Assembly: GCA_038060895.1 (NCBI GenBank)
Contig: JBBTCT010000006.1
Location: forward strand, 60,600-124,599
Length of the DNA: 64,000 nt
Origin: Planctomycetota bacterium
GTDB taxonomy: Bacteria > Planctomycetota > MHYJ01 > WSZJ01
Direction of reading: 5' to 3'
Positions 5,796-60,785 of the stretch are shown here, piece after piece; positions within the stretch are counted from its first letter, which is position 1, and each line of letters starts with the position of its first letter. The position numbers and the translations under genes are program-made. The notes beneath the pieces were generated by a model. That model did no database searches. It was not told the DNA's origin and saw nothing but the letters and a program-made list of their open reading frames with translations.

Positions 5796-5962
5796 CGGGG
5801 CCCGGCACGGGTTGCCCGGCCGGGATTTCGGGCCTCTGAGAAGCGAGAAACTGTCCTCTTGAGCGTCTGAAATCAGGACGGTTGTCTCCATTCCAGGTGC
5901 CGCTCAACCCGCGTGTTTTATGCAACATATTGTCGCATAAGTACTTACAAAAAACACAAGAG

Positions 5963-5978
5963 TGGCACGAGGGTTGCT
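5963..5978 (+). promoter_or_regulatory. sigma54 (RpoN) -24/-12 promoter
   Basis: TGGCAC-GAGGG-TTGCT is a perfect consensus; AT-rich IHF-like tract at about 5915-5958 upstream. Confidence 0.85.
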
Positions 5979-6032
5979 CTAATCCTACTCCGTCAGAATC
6001 AAAACAAGACCGACCCAAACGGAGATAAGACC

Positions 6033-6341
6033 ATGAGAAGCCTCCTTTCACTCGTCACCCTGGCCGCGATCGTCCTCGGCGTCTATCACTTCTACGGCCA
6101 GTCGTTCAACCCGAAGCCGCTCGCCGACAAGCTCCAGAACGACCCGATCCTCAACCCGAATCACCCCGAGATCCAGGACAGCGCCCGCACGCTCAACTTC
6201 ATCCAGCACGAGGCGGAGATGAAGCTGGCCGAAGCGAAGCGCCTGGCTGACGAGGCGCTCGCGCAGCCGGAAGCGGCGGCCAAGCGGGTGAAGGACGCCG
6301 TGACGGCCGTTCGGTCGAAGCCCGCGAACAGCTCGAACTAG
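6033..6341 (+). CDS. Small exported/membrane-anchored hypothetical protein
   Basis: GGAG RBS, N-terminal hydrophobic helix, C-terminal coiled segment; lies directly behind the sigma54 promoter. Confidence 0.8.
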   Translation: MRSLLSLVTLAAIVLGVYHFYGQSFNPKPLADKLQNDPILNPNHPEIQDSARTLNFIQHEAEMKLAEAKRLADEALAQPEAAAKRVKDAVTAVRSKPANSSN

Positions 6342-6360
6342 GCCCGACCCGACTCGAATC

Positions 6361-6390
6361 CAGGCGCCGCGGGACAACCTGCGGCGCCTG
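6361..6390. terminator. Hairpin terminator between convergent genes
   Basis: CAGGCGCCGCGGG-ACAA-CCTGCGGCGCCTG. Confidence 0.65.
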
Positions 6391-6392
6391 TC

Positions 6393-7274
6393 TTATTGGG
6401 TGAGGAAGTGCATCAGAACGCCGCTGATCGCGCCGAGCACGCCGCCCCAGACCTCCAGCCAGCCGAGATGCTCGCTCGTCGCCCGCAGGACCAGCTCCTT
6501 GATCTGCTTATCGGTGTACCCGTCCAGGTTGCCCTTCACGATCGTCTCGACGTCGATCCGCGCCAGCGTCGCCTCGAGCATCCCTTCAGCCATCGGGCGC
6601 AACCGTTCCTCGAGCGCCTTCGCTTCCACGCTCCCCGCCGCAGGGACGCGTTCGGCGAGCTCGCGAATTCTCGCCTTGGCATCCGGGTCGCTCGGCAGAT
6701 CCGTGAGAAACGCGTGCGCCGTGTCCACGATGGCATTGCCGACCGCGTCGGGATCGACCAGCGCGCGCGCGAAAAAGCCCTTCTCCCGGATTCCGTCCGC
6801 CAGGCGCCGCCGCAACTGTTCACGGACGCGCGGACTGCGGACCATCTCGCGCCCGCGGGACGAAACTTCCTCGAGAATCTTGCCTACCATCGTGTCGTCC
6901 GATGAAGCGCGCCGCAGGCGGTCGCGCGCAACCTCCACCAGCGCGGCCACAAAGTCGCTCTTCAGCACCTGCTCCTTGAGCGCTCCCGGCTGCACCAGCT
7001 TGTTCGCGACCGAGTGCGAAATCGCGGCGATCAGCGCTTCGCGTTTGGCCGGGATGACCCCCGTGAACGGAATTGGGATGCCGAGGATCCTGAAGCGATC
7101 GAAGAGCATCCGGATGGCGACGGCGTTCGTGCCCCATCCGACGAAGGCTGCGCTGCCCACAAGGAACACCGCGCGCTTCCAGGGTTCCGGCAGGGCGAAG
7201 GAAATCCCTGCCAGCGCGGCGCTTACGATGCCCGTCACAGGTCCCTTCCAGTCCGCTTTCCGGGTGTCGCTCAA
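6393..7274 (-). CDS. DUF445 family membrane protein
   Basis: VGWGTNAVAIRMLF..TGVIPAKRE and C-terminal EHLGWLEVWGGVLG motifs. Confidence 0.85.
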   Translation of the reverse strand: MSDTRKADWKGPVTGIVSAALAGISFALPEPWKRAVFLVGSAAFVGWGTNAVAIRMLFDRFRILGIPIPFTGVIPAKREALIAAISHSVANKLVQPGALKEQVLKSDFVAALVEVARDRLRRASSDDTMVGKILEEVSSRGREMVRSPRVREQLRRRLADGIREKGFFARALVDPDAVGNAIVDTAHAFLTDLPSDPDAKARIRELAERVPAAGSVEAKALEERLRPMAEGMLEATLARIDVETIVKGNLDGYTDKQIKELVLRATSEHLGWLEVWGGVLGAISGVLMHFLTQ

Positions 7275-7357
7275 GGCCAGCCAAAAATATCAGAATTCGT
7301 CAAGAAACCGAAAATTTGTCGAATATGCCGGGGGCGCTTGAGCGTTAAAATACAGGA

Positions 7358-7555
7358 AGTACGGGAAGGCGAACGAGCCTTCCCCCCAACATTGAAAATC
7401 GGGCTGTGCAGGACCGGGAGTCTCACCCCCTCTCAATACCCCCAACGTTCCCTCCCAATTTGCCATCGCAGAGGCTTCCGGTCCGCCAGCTCCACGCCCC
7501 GTATTTGCGGGGTTCAAAAGGCGGCGGCCCCCCCGGGCTGCCGCCACTTTTGTTT
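7358..7555 (+). ncRNA. Putative structured sRNA/leader with C-rich loop and intrinsic terminator
   Basis: TAAAAT at 7346-7351; hairpin GGGAAGGC/GCCTTCCC; 14-bp stem 7411-7424/7471-7484 closing a C-rich loop; CCCCG/CGGGG hairpin; 11-bp terminator stem 7520-7545 plus T tract. Confidence 0.55.
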
Positions 7556-7646
7556 GCCGCGGCCGATTTGACCGGTGGCATCGTTCGTACAAGAGGCGGG
7601 TGACGCGCCTTCCATTTGCAGTCAAAATGGGATTCGAGGGGGAACC

Positions 7647-8597
7647 ATGGCCACGAAACGCGATTACTACGAAGTCCTCGGCGTCGCCAAAACCGCGACC
7701 GACGACGACATCAAGAAGGCGTTCCGCAAGCTGGCGCGGCGCTACCACCCGGACGTCAATCCCGGGGACAAGACCGCTGAAACCAAGTTCAAGGAGATTG
7801 CCGAGGCTTACGAGGTGCTCTCCGACAAGAAGAAGCGGGAAACCTACGACCGCTTCGGCCATGCCGCCCCGCAAGCGAGCGGCCCCGGCGGCTTCCCGGG
7901 AGGGTTTCCCGGCGGCGGACAGCCGTTTGAGTACCGCTTCGACGGCGACCCCTCCCAGTTCTCGTCCTTCGAGGACCTTTTCTCCGGCCTCTTCGGCGGC
8001 GGCGGCCGCCGGCGTCGCGGCGGCTCGCCGTTCGGGACGGCCATCGCGGAGGACGGCGAGGACATCCTGGCCGAGATGGAAATCGATTTCATGGAAGCGC
8101 TTCGCGGCGTCGTGAAAGTGCTGACGCTCGAGTCGTCGAGCGGGCGCGAGACGGTGAAAGTGAAGGTCCCGGCGGGAATTGGCGATGGCCAGAAGATCCG
8201 GCTGGCGGGGAAGGGGCATCCCGGGACTTCGGGAGGGGAGCCCGGCGACCTCTATATCAAGCTGAGCGTGAGGCCGCACCCGGTGCTCGGGCGGGACGGC
8301 GCGAATCTGACGATGGACGTGCCCGTGACCGTCGGCGAAGCGATCAACGGTGCGGCCATCGACGTTCCGACTCCGTGGGGGGACGTGAAGCTGAAAGTCC
8401 CGGCGGGCGTCAAAACCGGCCAGTCGCTGCGGCTGCGCGGCATGGGTGCGCCGATTCCCGGCCAGGACGTGAAGGGCGACATGCACGTGAAACTGAAGAT
8501 CGTGCTCCCGGAGAATGCGACACCGGAGGCGAAAGCCGCCGCGCAGGTCATCGACAAGGCGTACAGCGGATCCGTGCGCTCCGGGTTGAAGTTCTAG
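7647..8597 (+). CDS. cbpA: DnaJ class B co-chaperone (CbpA-like, no Zn finger)
   Basis: [15 protein letters not shown] domain, G/F-rich linker, DnaJ C-terminal domains without CxxCxGxG repeats. Confidence 0.88.
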
Positions 8598-8700
8598 GCC
8601 GCCCCGCGAAGCCGCGTCTCTGCAGGGCCTGCCGGCCAGAAATTGAGAGAAGCGCCGGAGCGATCGCCCCGGCGCCTCTCGCCTCTCTGACTTGACACTG

Positions 8701-8728
8701 CTCAATCCTCAACACTCAAGACTCTCAA
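8701..8728. repeat. Four CTC-initiated heptads abutting the flotillin stop
   Basis: CTCAATC CTCAACA CTCAAGA CTCTCAA. Confidence 0.6.
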
Positions 8729-10288
8729 CTAGGCCTTCTTCGCCGGATCCACCGGCTTCGCGTCAACAACCTTGGCCTGACCGCTCAGTCCGGGCACCCG
8801 CTTGATCAGTTCCTTCAGGTCCACGCCCGACAGGCTTTCGATCAGCGGCGGAAGCTGTGCGACGACGTTGATGACGTCCTGCGTCACCTTGCTCGCGCCC
8901 AGCCCGTCGCCTCCCGTCGAGATGATCGTGATCTTGTCGGTCTTGCTGAGCGGCTCGGCTACCGCGCGGACGACCTCGGGGAGCTTCTCGATCAGCATCT
9001 GCATCACGGCCGCCTCGTTGTACTTCGACCAGGCCTCGGCCTTGCGCTGCATGGCCTGCGCTTCGGCTTCGCCTTTCGCCTTGATGACCTCGGCTTCCGC
9101 AAGACCCTTGGCGCGTTCGACCTCGGCCAGGGCAAGACCCGTCGCCTTCTGGACTTCCGCCGCCGCGAGACCTTTCGCCTTCTCCGCGTCGGCCATGCCG
9201 AACCCCAGGCTCTTCTGGGCCTCGGCCTGTCCTTTTGCCTCCGTCATCAGCTTGTACTGCGTGCCTTCGGCGATCGTGCGGATCCGGTACTGCTCGGCGT
9301 CCGCGGGCTTGCGGATCGTCGCTTCCAGCTCCTTCTCCCGCCTCGCGATTTCCTTGCCTTGCAGGTCGATCATCCGCTCCTTCTCGACGAGCATGACCTG
9401 CAGCTCCTGCTCCTTCACGAGCTGCGCGGTCTTGAACTTCTGAAGGTCGTACGCCAGGTCGCTTTCGGCTTTCTTCTGGTTCACGGCCGCGGCGAAGTCG
9501 GCCTGCTTCATCTGCAGGTCGCGCTGCGCCTCGCTGATCTTCGCGTCCGCTCCCAGCTTGACCTCCGCCCCGGCCTGGTTGGCGAGCGCCGACTTCTGCG
9601 TCGCCTCGCTGTCCGCCTGCGACTGCGCGATGATCGCGTCACGACGGACCTGCGCGATCCGCGGCTTGCCCAGGGCCTCGAGGTACCCCTGGTTGTCACG
9701 GATGTCCCGCAGCGTGAAGCTGATGATCTCCAGGCCCATGAGCAGCAGGTCCGTCGCCGCCACCTGCTGCACTTCCTGCGCGAACTTGTCCCGGTTCTTG
9801 TAGATCTCTTCGACCGTCAACGTGCCGACGATCGCCCGCAAGTGCCCTTCCAGCGTCTGAAGCGCAACCTCCATCATCTCCGCCCGCGTCTTCGACAGAA
9901 ACTGCTCCGCCGCCGTCGCGATCGAGGTCTCGTCGCTCTTCACCTTCACCTGCGCCACGCCGTCCACCATCACGGGCACGCCCGTCGAGGTGTAGATTTC
10001 CGGCGTCTTCACGTCGATCGTCATCATTTCCAGCGAAATCCGCTGCGCCTCTTCGAACACAGGCCACACGAACGTCGCGCCGCCCTTCACGATCCGGAAC
10101 CCGATCGAGCGCGCTCCCTGCGCCGTCTGCATCGTCCGCTGGCGGCCCGAGATGATGAGCGCTTCGTTCGGCCCCACCTTCACGTACCGGCTCGCGAAGA
10201 TCGCGAACCCCAGGAAAAAGACGACGACAAGCACCCCGCCCGCGATGAGGGCGTTGGGTGGAAGAGCTGCCAGCAACTGGATGGTCAT
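8729..10288 (-). CDS. Flotillin (SPFH/FloT-YuaG family)
   Basis: N-terminal TM helix, SPFH domain (VDGVAQVKV..TAAEQFL..LEGHLRAIVGTLTVEEI), long AEA-rich coiled coil. Confidence 0.95.
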   Translation of the reverse strand: MTIQLLAALPPNALIAGGVLVVVFFLGFAIFASRYVKVGPNEALIISGRQRTMQTAQGARSIGFRIVKGGATFVWPVFEEAQRISLEMMTIDVKTPEIYTSTGVPVMVDGVAQVKVKSDETSIATAAEQFLSKTRAEMMEVALQTLEGHLRAIVGTLTVEEIYKNRDKFAQEVQQVAATDLLLMGLEIISFTLRDIRDNQGYLEALGKPRIAQVRRDAIIAQSQADSEATQKSALANQAGAEVKLGADAKISEAQRDLQMKQADFAAAVNQKKAESDLAYDLQKFKTAQLVKEQELQVMLVEKERMIDLQGKEIARREKELEATIRKPADAEQYRIRTIAEGTQYKLMTEAKGQAEAQKSLGFGMADAEKAKGLAAAEVQKATGLALAEVERAKGLAEAEVIKAKGEAEAQAMQRKAEAWSKYNEAAVMQMLIEKLPEVVRAVAEPLSKTDKITIISTGGDGLGASKVTQDVINVVAQLPPLIESLSGVDLKELIKRVPGLSGQAKVVDAKPVDPAKKA

Positions 10289-10348
10289 GTCATTCCCTCC
10301 GATTGTGCGCCGTAGTTTTTGAGAAGCGCGCCCTGAGCCGCGCTTCGT

Positions 10349-10918
10349 TTATTTGGCGACGACGATGAAGACCTGCCCGTCCCGTTCGCGGATGACGACG
10401 GTCGTGCCCTGCGGGATTTCGGAGCCGGACATCGCCCTGGCCGGGGCCGAGAAGCGGCTCCCGGCGACTTCGTAGGAGATCTTCCCGGTACCACCGGCAG
10501 GAATCGTGATCGCGATCTGCGCCTCGATCCCGAGGATTTCGCTTTCGCGCGCGTGGCTCGTGGCGATGGTCTTCTTGAAGATGAACGCCATGGCCGAAGC
10601 GATCAGGGCGGCGAAGACGACGCCGCTGACGGCCGCGATGGCGAGGCTGAACGCCGGGTGGCGGTCCTTGAGGACTTCCTGCCCGATCATCCCGCCGGCA
10701 CCGAACGCGGTGAGAAAGATGGCGATGGCGATGGGGGAGAAGAGCGGGAAATGGAGGGAGTGGTCGCCGGAGTCGTGGCCGCCATCGCCACCGTGGCCCG
10801 TGTCGTGGCCGCCGTCGTGTCCTCCTCCGACGTGGCCGAGGAAGAACGCGATCACGGTGTAGCCCGTGCCGACGGTGAGGCTGAAAGTGTAAGCCCAGCT
10901 CAGCCAGGACCAGTTCAT
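10349..10918 (-). CDS. NfeD-like (YuaF) flotillin partner with His/Gly-rich loop
   Basis: Three TM helices, GGHDGGHDTGHGG loop, C-terminal OB-fold; directly upstream of flotillin; AGGGGTG RBS. Confidence 0.88.
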   Translation of the reverse strand: MNWSWLSWAYTFSLTVGTGYTVIAFFLGHVGGGHDGGHDTGHGGDGGHDSGDHSLHFPLFSPIAIAIFLTAFGAGGMIGQEVLKDRHPAFSLAIAAVSGVVFAALIASAMAFIFKKTIATSHARESEILGIEAQIAITIPAGGTGKISYEVAGSRFSAPARAMSGSEIPQGTTVVIRERDGQVFIVVAK

Positions 10919-10998
10919 GATCACCCCTTTCACCCCGTCAAGGCCCCGCCGAGGCGCGAAGCGCGCTGGCGCGGGCGAAGGCAGGAGGACTTCACAAC

Positions 10999-11014
10999 CT
11001 CAATTCGCGTGCCG
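10999..11014 (-). promoter_or_regulatory. Possible variant sigma54 promoter for nfeD-flotillin
   Basis: CGGCAC-GCGAA-TTGAG (GG-N10-GA, imperfect -12). Confidence 0.4.
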
Positions 11015-11090
11015 ACGCGGGAAGCGAGGGAGAGGGGTCATTGAAGCGTGGGGCGTTTGGGGCTGCACGCATTGCGTGATGCCCTGCACG

Positions 11091-11276
11091 TCATCGGCGG
11101 AAGCGCCGGAACGGCGATCGGGAGGGAATGTTCCCGGAAGGGCTGCGCACGGCGCGGATGATCCAGACGACGAGGACGATCGCGCCCAGGATGGCGAGCT
11201 CGGCGGGGGAAGAGCGGCGATGACTGCGGAAGAGGCGGGCGGGAGGAACGGCGGCGAACGAAGTGAACGTCTCGAT
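11091..11276 (-). CDS. Small single-TM peptide (61 aa) with apparent non-canonical ATC start
   Basis: AGGAGG followed 8 nt later by ATC; LAILGAIVLVVWII helix followed by Arg-rich tail. Confidence 0.45.
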   Translation of the reverse strand: METFTSFAAVPPARLFRSHRRSSPAELAILGAIVLVVWIIRAVRSPSGNIPSRSPFRRFRR

Positions 11277-11290
11277 GAGTCGAGCCTCCT

Positions 11291-11431
11291 GAAAGGGGCG
11301 GGGCGCGCTCACGTGAAGCGCGCCCCGCGGAAAACCTCGAGGGCCGGGGGAGCGAGACTGGGGGGAGTCGCGCTCGGGTAATGGGGAGGGGTGAACCCCG
11401 GCCCCCCCAAAGATGCGGTTGTCAAACGGCG
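11291..11431 (-). ncRNA. Putative sigma54-dependent structured sRNA/leader with C-rich loops
   Basis: Stem 11341-11349/11396-11404, inner hairpin with C6 loop, UUCACCCCUCCCCAUUACCC single-stranded motif, perfect 12-bp hairpin 11298-11328 followed by CCCUUUC. Confidence 0.55.
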
Positions 11432-11442
11432 GATGGAGAAAT

Positions 11443-11458
11443 CGCAATTTTGGTGCCG
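11443..11458 (-). promoter_or_regulatory. sigma54 -24/-12 promoter
   Basis: CGGCAC-CAAAA-TTGCG on the minus strand. Confidence 0.7.
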
Positions 11459-11536
11459 CGCGCGATCGGCCCTTTGCGCGCGTCTCGCAGGGCAGGCGCG
11501 TGCACGACGGGCCGCCTGGCGTGCACGGCGGCACGC

Positions 11537-11767
11537 CTATCCGAGGGAGCTCAGGACAATGAACAGGAAGTCCGGGAGGCCGCTGGCGAGCTGGCCGAAG
11601 ACGACAAGGCAGTTCCCGACCGCCGACAGAGCGGGGTGGACCGGACCCCCGGATTTCGGCGCGCCCACCGGAAGCTCGACCAGCCCGAGTTCGTCCTCGT
11701 GCGGCTCCAGGGGGCTTCGGCGGGCTTCGCCCGCCCCCCGTACATTCCCGCCCTTGCTCCGTACCAT
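11537..11767 (-). CDS. Possible small hypothetical protein
   Basis: 76 aa, GC3-rich codons in the 3' half, hydrophobic C-terminus; divergent -10 boxes near 11797-11804. Confidence 0.35.
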   Translation of the reverse strand: MVRSKGGNVRGAGEARRSPLEPHEDELGLVELPVGAPKSGGPVHPALSAVGNCLVVFGQLASGLPDFLFIVLSSLG

Positions 11768-59585: not shown

Positions 59586-60785
59586 ATGCGCACGATGATC
59601 CTCCTGATGTTCTGCGGCCTGGCCGCCGCGGCGCTTCCCCCCGATTGGGACCGGAAATCCGTGTCGCCGGCCTGCCCTTACTGCGAGGCCACGCTTGGCT
59701 GGAATTCCGCGCAGTGCTACTCCTGCCAGGCAAAGGTCGAGTGGGCGCTTCCCGCCGCGCCGGAAAACGGGGAGGAAGCGTGGCGCTTCCTGGCCACCGC
59801 CGTCGCCCGCCACGACCGCGCGTTCATCAAGCTGCTGGTGGAAGGGGATGCCGACGAGAACGAGCGGACGCTGGCGATTGCGCCGCTCATGGGGTTCACG
59901 AAGTCTGCGGCGATGGAAGGGGGAGAGCGCGTGGTCGCCGTGGCGCTCGACCGGGCGACGTCGCTGGCGCTCGTGTGGTCGAAGGGAAAGTTCGCGGCGC
60001 GGTTTGAAGCCCACCGGCCGCTCAAGAACCAGGTGGAGGCGATCAGGCTGCTCAGGTCCGCGGCGGCCGCGGAGTCGAAATTGCGGGACGGTGATCTCGA
60101 CGGCAACGGGGCCGCCGATTTCTGGGCCGGCGACTGGTCCGGGCTCGCGCGGCTGGCGGATGCGGACGGAAATGCTCTCGCGCTCATCTCGCCCGAGGCA
60201 GCGGCAGCGGACTTGAAGCCGCTTCCCGCTTCCGCCGAGGGCGCTCCCCGCCCGCGCCTGCTTGCCGCCGCGCCCGCCGCGCCGTGGAACGGTTACCGGT
60301 TCGCCGCGCTGGTGCTCGACGAGGCGGGCCGGCCTCTCGCGGCCGACGGCCCGGATGCCGGCGGCGACGCGTGGGAAAACCCGAAGTCGTTCGCGTTCAT
60401 CGCCATCCCCGCCGAGCGCGGCGTGACAGGGTGGATGACGCTCGTCGTGTCGGAAGACGGGCAGGTCTGGGGCAAGGACCTCGGGGAAGCCACGGGGCGC
60501 GAAGAGATGCCCGGAGCCGCATCTGCCGAGGAATCCGCCGCAATCGCAGCCGCGATTCGCAGTCTTGACGCCGAGGCGCAGGAGACGCGGGAGGCGGCCG
60601 ACGCGACGCTGCGTTCGTTGGGGAGAAAGGCGAAGGCGGCGATGGAGGAAGCGCTGAAGTCAGCCGGACCGGAGCCGCGACGGCGGCTGCGCGACATTCT
60701 CGAAGATCTTCAGGCGATCCCCGATGCGCGCCGCTGGCCGGCGGAATCGAAGGACCTCATGGACGCTGGGTGGGAACGACTCTGA
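59586..60785 (+). CDS. Exported DUF2950/pilin-like protein with N-terminal zinc ribbon and C-terminal HEAT repeat
   Basis: CPYC..CYSC; DLDGNGAADFW, GYRF, FAFIAIPA..GWMTLVVSEDGQVWGKD; TREAADATL. Confidence 0.7.
   Translation: MRTMILLMFCGLAAAALPPDWDRKSVSPACPYCEATLGWNSAQCYSCQAKVEWALPAAPENGEEAWRFLATAVARHDRAFIKLLVEGDADENERTLAIAPLMGFTKSAAMEGGERVVAVALDRATSLALVWSKGKFAARFEAHRPLKNQVEAIRLLRSAAAAESKLRDGDLDGNGAADFWAGDWSGLARLADADGNALALISPEAAAADLKPLPASAEGAPRPRLLAAAPAAPWNGYRFAALVLDEAGRPLAADGPDAGGDAWENPKSFAFIAIPAERGVTGWMTLVVSEDGQVWGKDLGEATGREEMPGAASAEESAAIAAAIRSLDAEAQETREAADATLRSLGRKAKAAMEEALKSAGPEPRRRLRDILEDLQAIPDARRWPAESKDLMDAGWERL

Follow-up and report, generated by a model that had tools for sequence, protein, structure and literature searches.

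Two conserved, structured, cytosine-rich RNAs, here called RNA1 and RNA2, lie on either side of a cluster of chaperone and membrane-stress genes in a 64-kb stretch of DNA from an uncultured planctomycete (the window: positions 60600–124599 of contig C6 in genome G000, a 5.4-Mb assembly with 66% G+C that is 86.5% complete). They are two new RNA families, each restricted to one genus, and their predicted sigma inputs differ. The best explanation overall, which we hold with about even confidence, is that they are two separate RNAs placed under two different stress sigma factors, RNA1 acting as a small RNA (sRNA) and RNA2 as a leader. Gene order, conservation, structure, the promoter boxes and the terminator are observed in the sequences, whereas transcription, the ends of the RNAs, the sigma factors assigned to them, their targets and their mechanism are predictions. 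A first-pass annotation of the sequence had presented them as paralogues within one undescribed family of riboregulators, each pairing with the ribosome-binding site (RBS) of a downstream stress gene, cbpA for RNA1 and nfeD for RNA2. What survives of that proposal is that both are undescribed structured RNAs, C-rich and resembling an anti-Shine-Dalgarno (anti-SD) sequence, and that both lie beside stress genes; neither a single family nor control of the neighbouring RBSs is borne out by the data below.

Both stretches sit where they had been placed, RNA1 at 7358–7555 on the forward strand and RNA2 at 11291–11431 on the reverse strand. RNA1 folds at −93.6 kcal/mol (z = −6.9) and RNA2 at −69.7 kcal/mol (z = −4.2); each was compared with 200 shuffled controls, none of which folded as well. 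For comparison we used related genomes (G001–G007 and others), of which the genus set comprises eight, including G000. Covariance models were built from eight genus sequences for RNA1 (model R1) and from six for RNA2 (model R2).

Conservation, promoter and structure of RNA1

RNA1 is present as a single copy in all eight genomes of the genus (88–124 bits, blastn and R1). R1 found it in none of four other genomes of the order and in none of 48 genomes that belong to the class but not to the genus, and a blastn search against 53 non-genus relatives returned just short matches at chance level. A 16-mer scan of genome contigs gave at least 120 stretches, of which 80 were scored with R1; the best of these reached 16.9 bits, and no true RNA1 was among them. 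Scanning metagenomes with a two-box pattern from the loop of RNA1 yielded six loci, one of them a true RNA1 (90 bits).

Upstream of RNA1, at 7320–7346 (+), lies a two-box element consisting of a −35-like CGAATAT (7320–7326) and a −10-like CGTT (7343–7346). The pattern CGAATA[CT]-N15/16-CGTT is invariant at nine of nine loci (the eight genus genomes and one metagenome contig), while its G+C-rich spacer varies freely. Invariant boxes around a non-conserved spacer are promoter-like, and their shape is that of promoters recognized by extracytoplasmic function (ECF) sigma factors. Applied strictly to G000, the motif has five matches, as against none for the reversed control. About 46 sigma-70-family domain hits are found in this genome; none of its sigma or activator genes is located close to the locus.

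The fold of RNA1 was evaluated on a MAFFT alignment of the nine sequences, with column shuffles (n = 500) and slid pairings as controls. A four-helix consensus, in which 93.6% of cells are paired, comprises a 5′ hairpin (7363–7384), a long stem (7401–7424 paired with 7471–7493), a second hairpin (7496–7513) and a terminator (7520–7545, with a U-run to 7555), all on the forward strand. Pairs that change on both sides number 13 out of 44, compared with 5.0 ± 1.5 in the shuffles, none of which reached that number (0 of 500), and with 2–4 in the slid controls. Three of the covarying pairs belong to the terminator helix, which was also called by a terminator scan as an 11-bp G+C stem with a T-run. 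Conserved G–U pairs, which would be A–C mismatches on the opposite strand, fix the strand of RNA1.

The most conserved part of the molecule is the apical loop (7425–7470, +), 46 nt of single-stranded C/U-rich sequence whose near-invariance contrasts with the variation and covariation of the stems. It holds three boxes, CCCCCUCUC, CCCCC and GUUCCCUCCC, and is the proposed seed. In sequence, the first box is similar to the 3′ tail of G000's own 16S rRNA (at C33). The second C-tract that the first-pass annotation had noted in each RNA is indeed there, as CCCUCCC in this loop and as a C5–6 apical loop in RNA2.

RNA1 thus has its own conserved two-box promoter, as predicted from sequence, and its own Rho-independent terminator. 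A promoter, a terminator, a covarying scaffold and an invariant unpaired loop are together what characterizes sRNAs that act in trans by base pairing, and we read RNA1 as a putative trans-acting sRNA of the anti-SD type. It is predicted to be free-standing and about 200 nt long, spanning ~7354–7556 (+) as judged from fold, covariation, terminator and conservation, with both ends placed from the sequence. In the mechanism that we propose, an ECF-type sigma factor would start RNA1 at ~7354 and the intrinsic terminator would end it at ~7555. The long covarying stem would present the near-invariant loop with its 16S-tail-like boxes, which could then pair in trans with the G-rich RBSs of several mRNAs and alter their translation or stability for as long as the sigma factor is active. 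This action would probably be Hfq-free, as for other C-rich sRNAs: no Hfq gene was found in G000 (at 86.5% completeness) and CsrA is present, which fits an Hfq-independent style of sRNA with a C/G seed.

RNA2 and its predicted sigma-54 promoter

RNA2 was detected by R2 as a single copy in seven of the eight genus genomes, six copies scoring 83–120 bits and the divergent copy of G006 scoring 43 bits; it was not found in G007 (87% complete). Weak R2 matches in G010, G008 and G011 and on contig C134 of G006 were rejected as terminator-like hairpins lacking an nfeD/flotillin context, with one exception that stands directly after a flotillin gene.

Fold, conservation and promoter place RNA2 at ~11295–11432 (−), with the 5′ end set by the position of the promoter. 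Its outer stem (~11406–11340) encloses a C-rich tract in an internal loop (11395–11376) and an inner hairpin with a C6 loop (11375–11350), and a 3′ hairpin follows (11328–11298; all on the reverse strand). In the alignment of six close genomes the share of paired cells is 96%, and 25 of the 32 pairs are the same throughout; in G006 the sequence of the outer stem is divergent and still fully complementary. All seven genomes retain the C5–6 loop at the tip of the inner hairpin. The C-rich tract that follows the 5′ arm measures 22 nt in G000, 14 nt in G001 and 9 nt in G003, and this anti-SD-like tract, the motif shared with RNA1, is the least conserved part of the molecule. Conservation therefore marks the stems and the C5–6 hairpin loop as functional parts of RNA2, and not the anti-SD-like tract.

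A sigma-54-type promoter, P1 (GGCAC-N5-TTGC, 11442–11457, −), precedes RNA2 with canonical −24/−12 spacing in all seven genomes that bear the RNA, and transcription is predicted to start near 11432, which agrees with the 5′ end given to RNA2 in the first-pass annotation. Promoters of this class have GG at −24 and GC at −12 at a fixed distance (TGGCAC-N5-TTGC). On its own the relaxed sigma-54 motif is weak, with 110 hits in the genome against 60 for the reversed control. G000 encodes rpoN (209 bits) and about 21 full-length Sigma54_activat proteins, none of which is encoded on this contig. Roughly 50–80 nt upstream of P1 lie paired TGCACG sites (11499–11525, −; CGTGCACG palindrome), candidate binding sites of the P1 activator whose copies are 21 nt apart. 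They keep the same distance in six of seven genomes, G006 showing one site, and of the six strand hits that TGCACG-N14–17-TGCACG has genome-wide three are at this locus.

A second sigma-54-like box, GGCAC-N5-TTGA (10998–11013, −), lies ~80 nt upstream of nfeD; in six of six genomes both this box and a block upstream of it containing GTGCAG are conserved. The function of the box is uncertain, as its −12 element is TTGA rather than TTGC. A GTGCAG-N15-GTGCAG pair is found upstream of it (11063–11089, −), the proximal copy in six of six genomes and the distal copy just in G000 and G002. Both boxes with their upstream regions (10998–11089 and 11442–11525, −) carry GTGCA[CG]-N15-GTGCA[CG] pairs at similar distances, which suggests that a single activator co-regulates RNA2 and nfeD-flotillin.

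Outside this locus, G000 contains a third copy of the GGCACCGGAATTGCAAT box at C7:27197–27213 (+). It matches the genus consensus of the RNA2 promoter exactly and lies 13 nt before the gene for a 430-aa signal-peptide protein, which in turn is followed by a GGCACG-N4-TTGC box. Because the C7:27197 box has no TGCACG pair upstream, a different activator is likely there.

Both RNAs had been described as ending in a terminator-like hairpin, which holds for RNA1 and fails for RNA2: no T-run follows the stem of the 3′ hairpin in any of six genomes, and the terminator scan did not call it. In five of six genomes this hairpin is directly followed by AGGAG and, 8 nt on, by a conserved reading frame. 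In G000 the frame is a small ORF of 61 codons plus stop (11091–11276, −) with one transmembrane helix. Frame, length (58–61 aa), an N-terminal IET..S, a C-terminal GPTPPSSF.RFRR and the hydrophobic helix are conserved in five of six genomes. The sole conserved start candidate is ATC (AUC in the transcript), as no ATG, GTG or TTG start is conserved. The protein belongs to no Pfam family, and a search for homologues in protein databases returned just its own 73-aa call, which starts from a GTG not conserved in the other genomes. We consider the 61-codon ORF a probable, though not certain, gene.

We read RNA2 as a putative sigma-54-dependent structured 5′ leader and not as a terminated sRNA, although an additional release as an sRNA is possible. 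Under this model RNA2 would be transcribed from the sigma-54 promoter, with the activator probably bound at the two upstream palindromes. The transcript would continue, having no U-tract terminator, into the SD and the AUC-initiated ORF for the 61-codon membrane protein, downstream of which lie the second sigma-54-like box and nfeD-flotillin. RNA2 would form the 5′ leader of an envelope-stress transcript and act in cis, either on how stable the transcript is or on how the weak start codon is used for initiation.

At this locus, related genomes also differ in whether they have long hairpins and a GAGCGAGCGAAGCGAG-type repeat (L049 ~1670–1760 in G002, L050 ~1860–1960 in G004, L199 1620–1826 in G006); in G002 they take the place of the small ORF.

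Resemblance between RNA1 and RNA2

The near-identical motif that had been reported in the two RNAs is present. Written as TCACCCC-Y4-CAWTACCC, it has exactly two copies in the window, at 7423–7441 (+) and 11376–11394 (−), against 0.08 expected, a count that is circular because the pattern was derived from those two copies. A looser form of the motif finds in the 5.4-Mb genome the same two copies and one unrelated site. When R1 was run on 79 kb of sequence, its best non-self hits were RNA2 of G000 (19 bits, E 0.03) and RNA2 of G002 (16.5 bits). Genome-wide, RNA2 was not among the R1 hits with E ≤ 10, and R2 gave no RNA1 hit at E ≤ 1. Likewise, nhmmer profiles of the shared 5′ segment, used in both directions, left the other element outside the top 15 genome hits. 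Thus, the resemblance is real in G000 and fails unbiased tests; RNA1 and RNA2 may share a common descent, yet the paralogy that had been claimed lacks reciprocal detection, and the tract on which it was built is the one that RNA2 conserves least.

Predicted pairing with start regions

Predicted duplexes were compared with two null sets from G000, 60,832 random 30-nt genomic windows and 6929 candidate start regions, the latter taken from a crude SD-optimised ORF call and not from gene prediction. For the comparison across genomes, each RNA was paired with its own neighbour gene and scored against a 1500-region sample of the start-region null, in seven genomes for cbpA and in six for nfeD.

The duplex between the RNA1 loop and the cbpA RBS has an energy of −21.9 kcal/mol, which is matched by 3.5% of the random windows and by 17% of the start regions. 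In the seven genomes it is matched by 13, 14, 13, 34, 90, 14 and 46% of start regions. The pairing proposed between RNA1 and the cbpA leader is thus at chance level, being unremarkable in seven of seven genomes.

Pairing between the RNA2 tract and the nfeD RBS stands out in part of the genus. Among random windows the G000 duplex (−24.7 kcal/mol) ranks within the top 0.07%, and among start regions within the top 0.4%. With the slightly longer tract of each genome's own RNA2 (−27.8 kcal/mol in G000) it is matched by 0.5, 1.3, 5, 25, 47 and 35% of start regions in the six genomes. The strong match is therefore a feature of the lineage of G000 and G002, and does not extend to the four others. The doubled RBS described for nfeD (GGGGUGA) is likewise found in G000 alone, the other genomes having ordinary GGAGG-type sites.

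Over the 6929 start regions, pairing energy correlates with SD strength (r = 0.56–0.63). Given their resemblance to the 3′ tail of 16S rRNA, the C-rich tracts can be expected to pair with any strong SD, as generic anti-SD mimics would. GGAGG occurs in 1126 of the 6929 candidate start regions. The RNA1 loop has a perfect complement of at least 9 nt in 43 of the 6929.

C-rich heptamer-like arrays (CCCCATCCCAATCCC...) were observed at contig ends of G000 and beside N-runs (for example C47:24670, C22:409085, C26:55643 and C1:473940). No predicted duplex with the RNA1 loop is stronger than those formed by the G-rich strand of these arrays, as at C20:48035.

Genes of the locus

RNA1 is followed on the same strand by a gene for a cbpA-like J-protein (7647–8597, +), with DnaJ and DnaJ_C domains (Pfam E 5e-29 and 3e-44), and its divergent neighbour on the other side is a DUF445 gene (6393–7274, −). 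The gene order DUF445-RNA1-cbpA is kept at all nine loci. RNA2 is followed by the gene for an NfeD-like membrane protein (10349–10918, −), whose ATG start at 10918 is preceded by GGGGUGAAAGGGGUGA, and by a flotillin gene with Band_7 and Flot domains in Pfam (8729–10288, −). The NfeD C-terminal domain of the 10349–10918 protein scores 21.8 bits, under the cut-off of 29.1; its orthologues are 68–83% identical. The cbpA (7647–8597, +) and nfeD-flotillin (10918–8729, −) units are convergent and are bracketed by the two RNAs, as the first-pass annotation had it.

Elsewhere in the window, a near-consensus sigma-54 promoter (TGGCAC-N5-TTGC, 5962–5981, +) is followed by a CA-rich leader of ~50 nt and by a gene for a 102-aa protein (6033–6341, +) with an N-terminal anchor, a helical remainder and no Pfam family. 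The same design, a sigma-54 promoter with a CA-rich leader as in 5962–6341, recurs in G000 at C9:116286 (−), C12:112707 (+) and C22:199727 (−).

Evaluation of alternative explanations

Several observations weigh against the reading of RNA1 as an ECF-driven sRNA and of RNA2 as a sigma-54-dependent leader. The RNA1 promoter motif is absent from the 600 nt upstream of the 46 sigma-70-family domain hits, and because no ECF gene carries it upstream, the sigma factor has been assigned from the shape of the motif. No specific or coherent set of RNA1 targets emerged from the perfect complements: the 12 annotated genes among the 43 (TPR, ParA-like, XseB, REC-PilZ, hydrolase, oxidoreductase, Rce1-like, GroEL and four without a family) are unrelated in function. 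No covariation signal was seen in the RNA2 stems of the six close genomes. In G000 the minimum-energy fold of RNA2 with its 5′ and 3′ flanks breaks the outer stem. The small ORF has variable columns at codon positions 1, 2 and 3 in the ratio 42/30/37 of 56, an unclean coding signature. Moreover, G002 lacks the small ORF and keeps RNA2 at 89% identity, and in G006 a different, very hydrophobic ORF of 38 codons (L199 1375–1490) is preceded by a consensus sigma-54 promoter and followed by the RNA2-like element, an order reversed relative to the other genomes; these two exceptions indicate that RNA2 is not simply the leader of the 61-codon ORF. Finally, contigs from three metatranscriptome runs of one aquifer sample, compared with 6300–11700, are scattered over the genes, both RNAs and the DNA upstream of both predicted starts, but unstranded contigs at 2–4× depth say nothing for or against discrete RNA1 and RNA2 transcripts.

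The position of RNA1 directly 5′ of cbpA and in the same orientation, at nine of nine loci including the most divergent, also fits a cis-acting 5′ leader. RNA1 would then be an attenuator or riboswitch-like element of cbpA whose terminator stops transcription unless a signal (temperature, a protein, or an RNA on the C-rich loop) gives read-through. Here the intrinsic terminator, ~90 nt (G000) to ~170 nt (G006) before the cbpA start, would be the point of control, and CCGCC, which is part of the main stem's 3′ arm, is in theory able to base-pair with GGCGG of the terminator 5′ arm. However, no conserved anti-terminator structure is predicted and the consensus keeps all four helices; a separate conserved block between the terminator and cbpA in six of eight genomes suggests that cbpA may have a promoter of its own; and in G005 the cbpA RBS is not G-rich while the RNA1 loop is unchanged. 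We regard the cbpA leader as unlikely, though it deserves more weight than any other rival considered here. The first-pass model, in which paralogues of one riboregulator family each mask the RBS of a downstream stress gene, appears improbable. It draws on the similar opening of the two RNAs (GGNCCGGG, then U, then CACCCC... before further C-tracts), on the R1 hits to RNA2 in G000 and G002, and on the nfeD pairing, which is in the top 0.4% in G000 and the top 1.3% in G002. The missing reciprocal detection genome-wide, a cbpA pairing matched by 13–90% of start regions in seven genomes, an nfeD pairing matched by 5–47% in four of six, the restriction of the doubled RBS to G000, and a shared tract that shrinks to 14 nt in G001 and 9 nt in G003 all speak against it.

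Much the same low probability attaches to the idea that one or both RNAs are decoys or sponges, 16S-tail mimics that bind a protein, or SD-bearing mRNAs in bulk, and move translation off strong-SD mRNAs in stress. It would account for tracts that resemble the 16S 3′ tail and for a pairing energy that tracks SD strength, as well as for three C-rich boxes held by one 46-nt loop, and the GGAGG count given above makes SD-led genes a distinct subset on which such a mimic could act. Yet stoichiometric action needs very high abundance, and no protein binding C-rich RNA was identified in this analysis; CsrA, which G000 has, binds GGA motifs and not C-tracts. Least probable of all, and very unlikely, is that conservation here reflects regulatory sites at the DNA level (promoter, operator or enhancer) and not functional RNAs. 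The RNA2 stems are indeed invariant in sequence and not covarying, and both regions are intergenic and rich in promoter-like boxes, but the RNA1 stems covary, keep G–U pairs and end in a terminator with a T-run, and RNA2 lies downstream, not upstream, of its sigma-54 box.

Two separate RNAs under two stress sigma factors could also be parts of something larger, although we consider the following extension speculative and rather improbable. The locus might be the RNA arm of an envelope/proteotoxic stress response, in which an ECF-dependent sRNA and a sigma-54-dependent leader or sRNA, both acting as 16S-tail mimics, damp the strong-SD minority of mRNAs and so reprogramme translation globally. 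The sigma-54 transcript would then be dual-function, encoding also the AUC-initiated 61-aa membrane protein, co-regulated with NfeD-flotillin via shared activator sites.

RNA1 and RNA2 are concrete candidates from Planctomycetes with predicted ECF and sigma-54 inputs and precise predicted boundaries. Their practical value is limited, as both are confined to one uncultured genus; their anatomy is clean and testable. If the proposal for RNA2 is true, NfeD-flotillin would be tied to sigma-54 control.

Comparison with known RNA families and systems

No described family matched either RNA. Searched with Rfam 15 at gathering score, the whole 64-kb window gave no match. At E ≤ 10, nine chance-level hits were obtained over 7200–11600, the best being mir-290 (22.7 bits against 51). 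The CcsR1 model scored 15 bits on RNA1, and on the wrong part of it, against a gathering score of 65.3. For 6C there was no hit at E ≤ 10, and the architecture also differs; the earlier remark that the fold looks like neither 6C nor the cuckoo RNAs is upheld. Among the papers listed by a loose literature search none focused on sRNAs of Planctomycetes, and a limited one found no paper with both sigma-54 and flotillin or NfeD, which is not proof of absence in print.

For the RNA2 locus the nearest parallel is the psp operon of enterobacteria, which is controlled by PspF and sigma-54; SPFH proteins and flotillins are linked to Psp. As there, small membrane proteins and membrane-stress genes are predicted to be driven by a sigma-54 promoter that has a pair of activator sites upstream. 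In contrast to psp, there is no pspA or pspF at the RNA2 locus and no activator gene on the contig, and a structured C-rich leader of 150 nt precedes the first ORF.

The 6C RNA of Actinobacteria has two hairpins with C-rich loops, and RsaE/RoxS are sRNAs of Firmicutes with C-rich loops; in 6C, RsaE and RoxS such loops occur in high-GC or Hfq-independent settings. The conserved C5–6 apical loop of RNA2 resembles a single loop of the 6C type. Both families differ from the RNAs described here in the number and arrangement of helices and in phylum, and neither gave an Rfam match at E ≤ 10.

Cuckoo/CcsR RNAs of Alphaproteobacteria (RSs0680, ar14) are described in one report (PMC4615179) as controlled by stress sigma factors and built of 2–4 adjacent hairpins of 24–50 nt, each with a CCUCCUCCC anti-SD motif in its loop. 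Control by a stress sigma factor, predicted here, and anti-SD-like C/U-rich motifs in unpaired loops are shared features. RNA1, however, is one long hairpin with three unlike boxes, and the RNA2 tract is in an internal loop.

GsrN of Caulobacter is, according to its description (PMC5869019), a stress sRNA dependent on sigma-EcfG/sigT, whose conserved C-rich loop pairs with G-rich mRNA leaders. RNA1 is likewise a putative stress sRNA with predicted ECF-sigma dependence and a C-rich loop. In GsrN, however, the C-rich loop is short and lies toward the 5′ end; that of RNA1 measures 46 nt, carries three boxes and sits on a stem of 22 bp. The two share no sequence or model similarity (no Rfam hit) and belong to different phyla. 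The −35 box of EcfG promoters is GGAAC, and that of RNA1 is CGAATA.

RNA1 does not show the features that define the GsrN, cuckoo, 6C or RsaE/RoxS families. By analogy of function, its closest counterparts are GsrN and the cuckoo/CcsR/NfeR1 RNAs, with 6C and RsaE/RoxS as further ones. If the reading of RNA1 is confirmed, the design of a C-rich anti-SD sRNA driven by a stress sigma factor would reach another phylum, apparently without Hfq.

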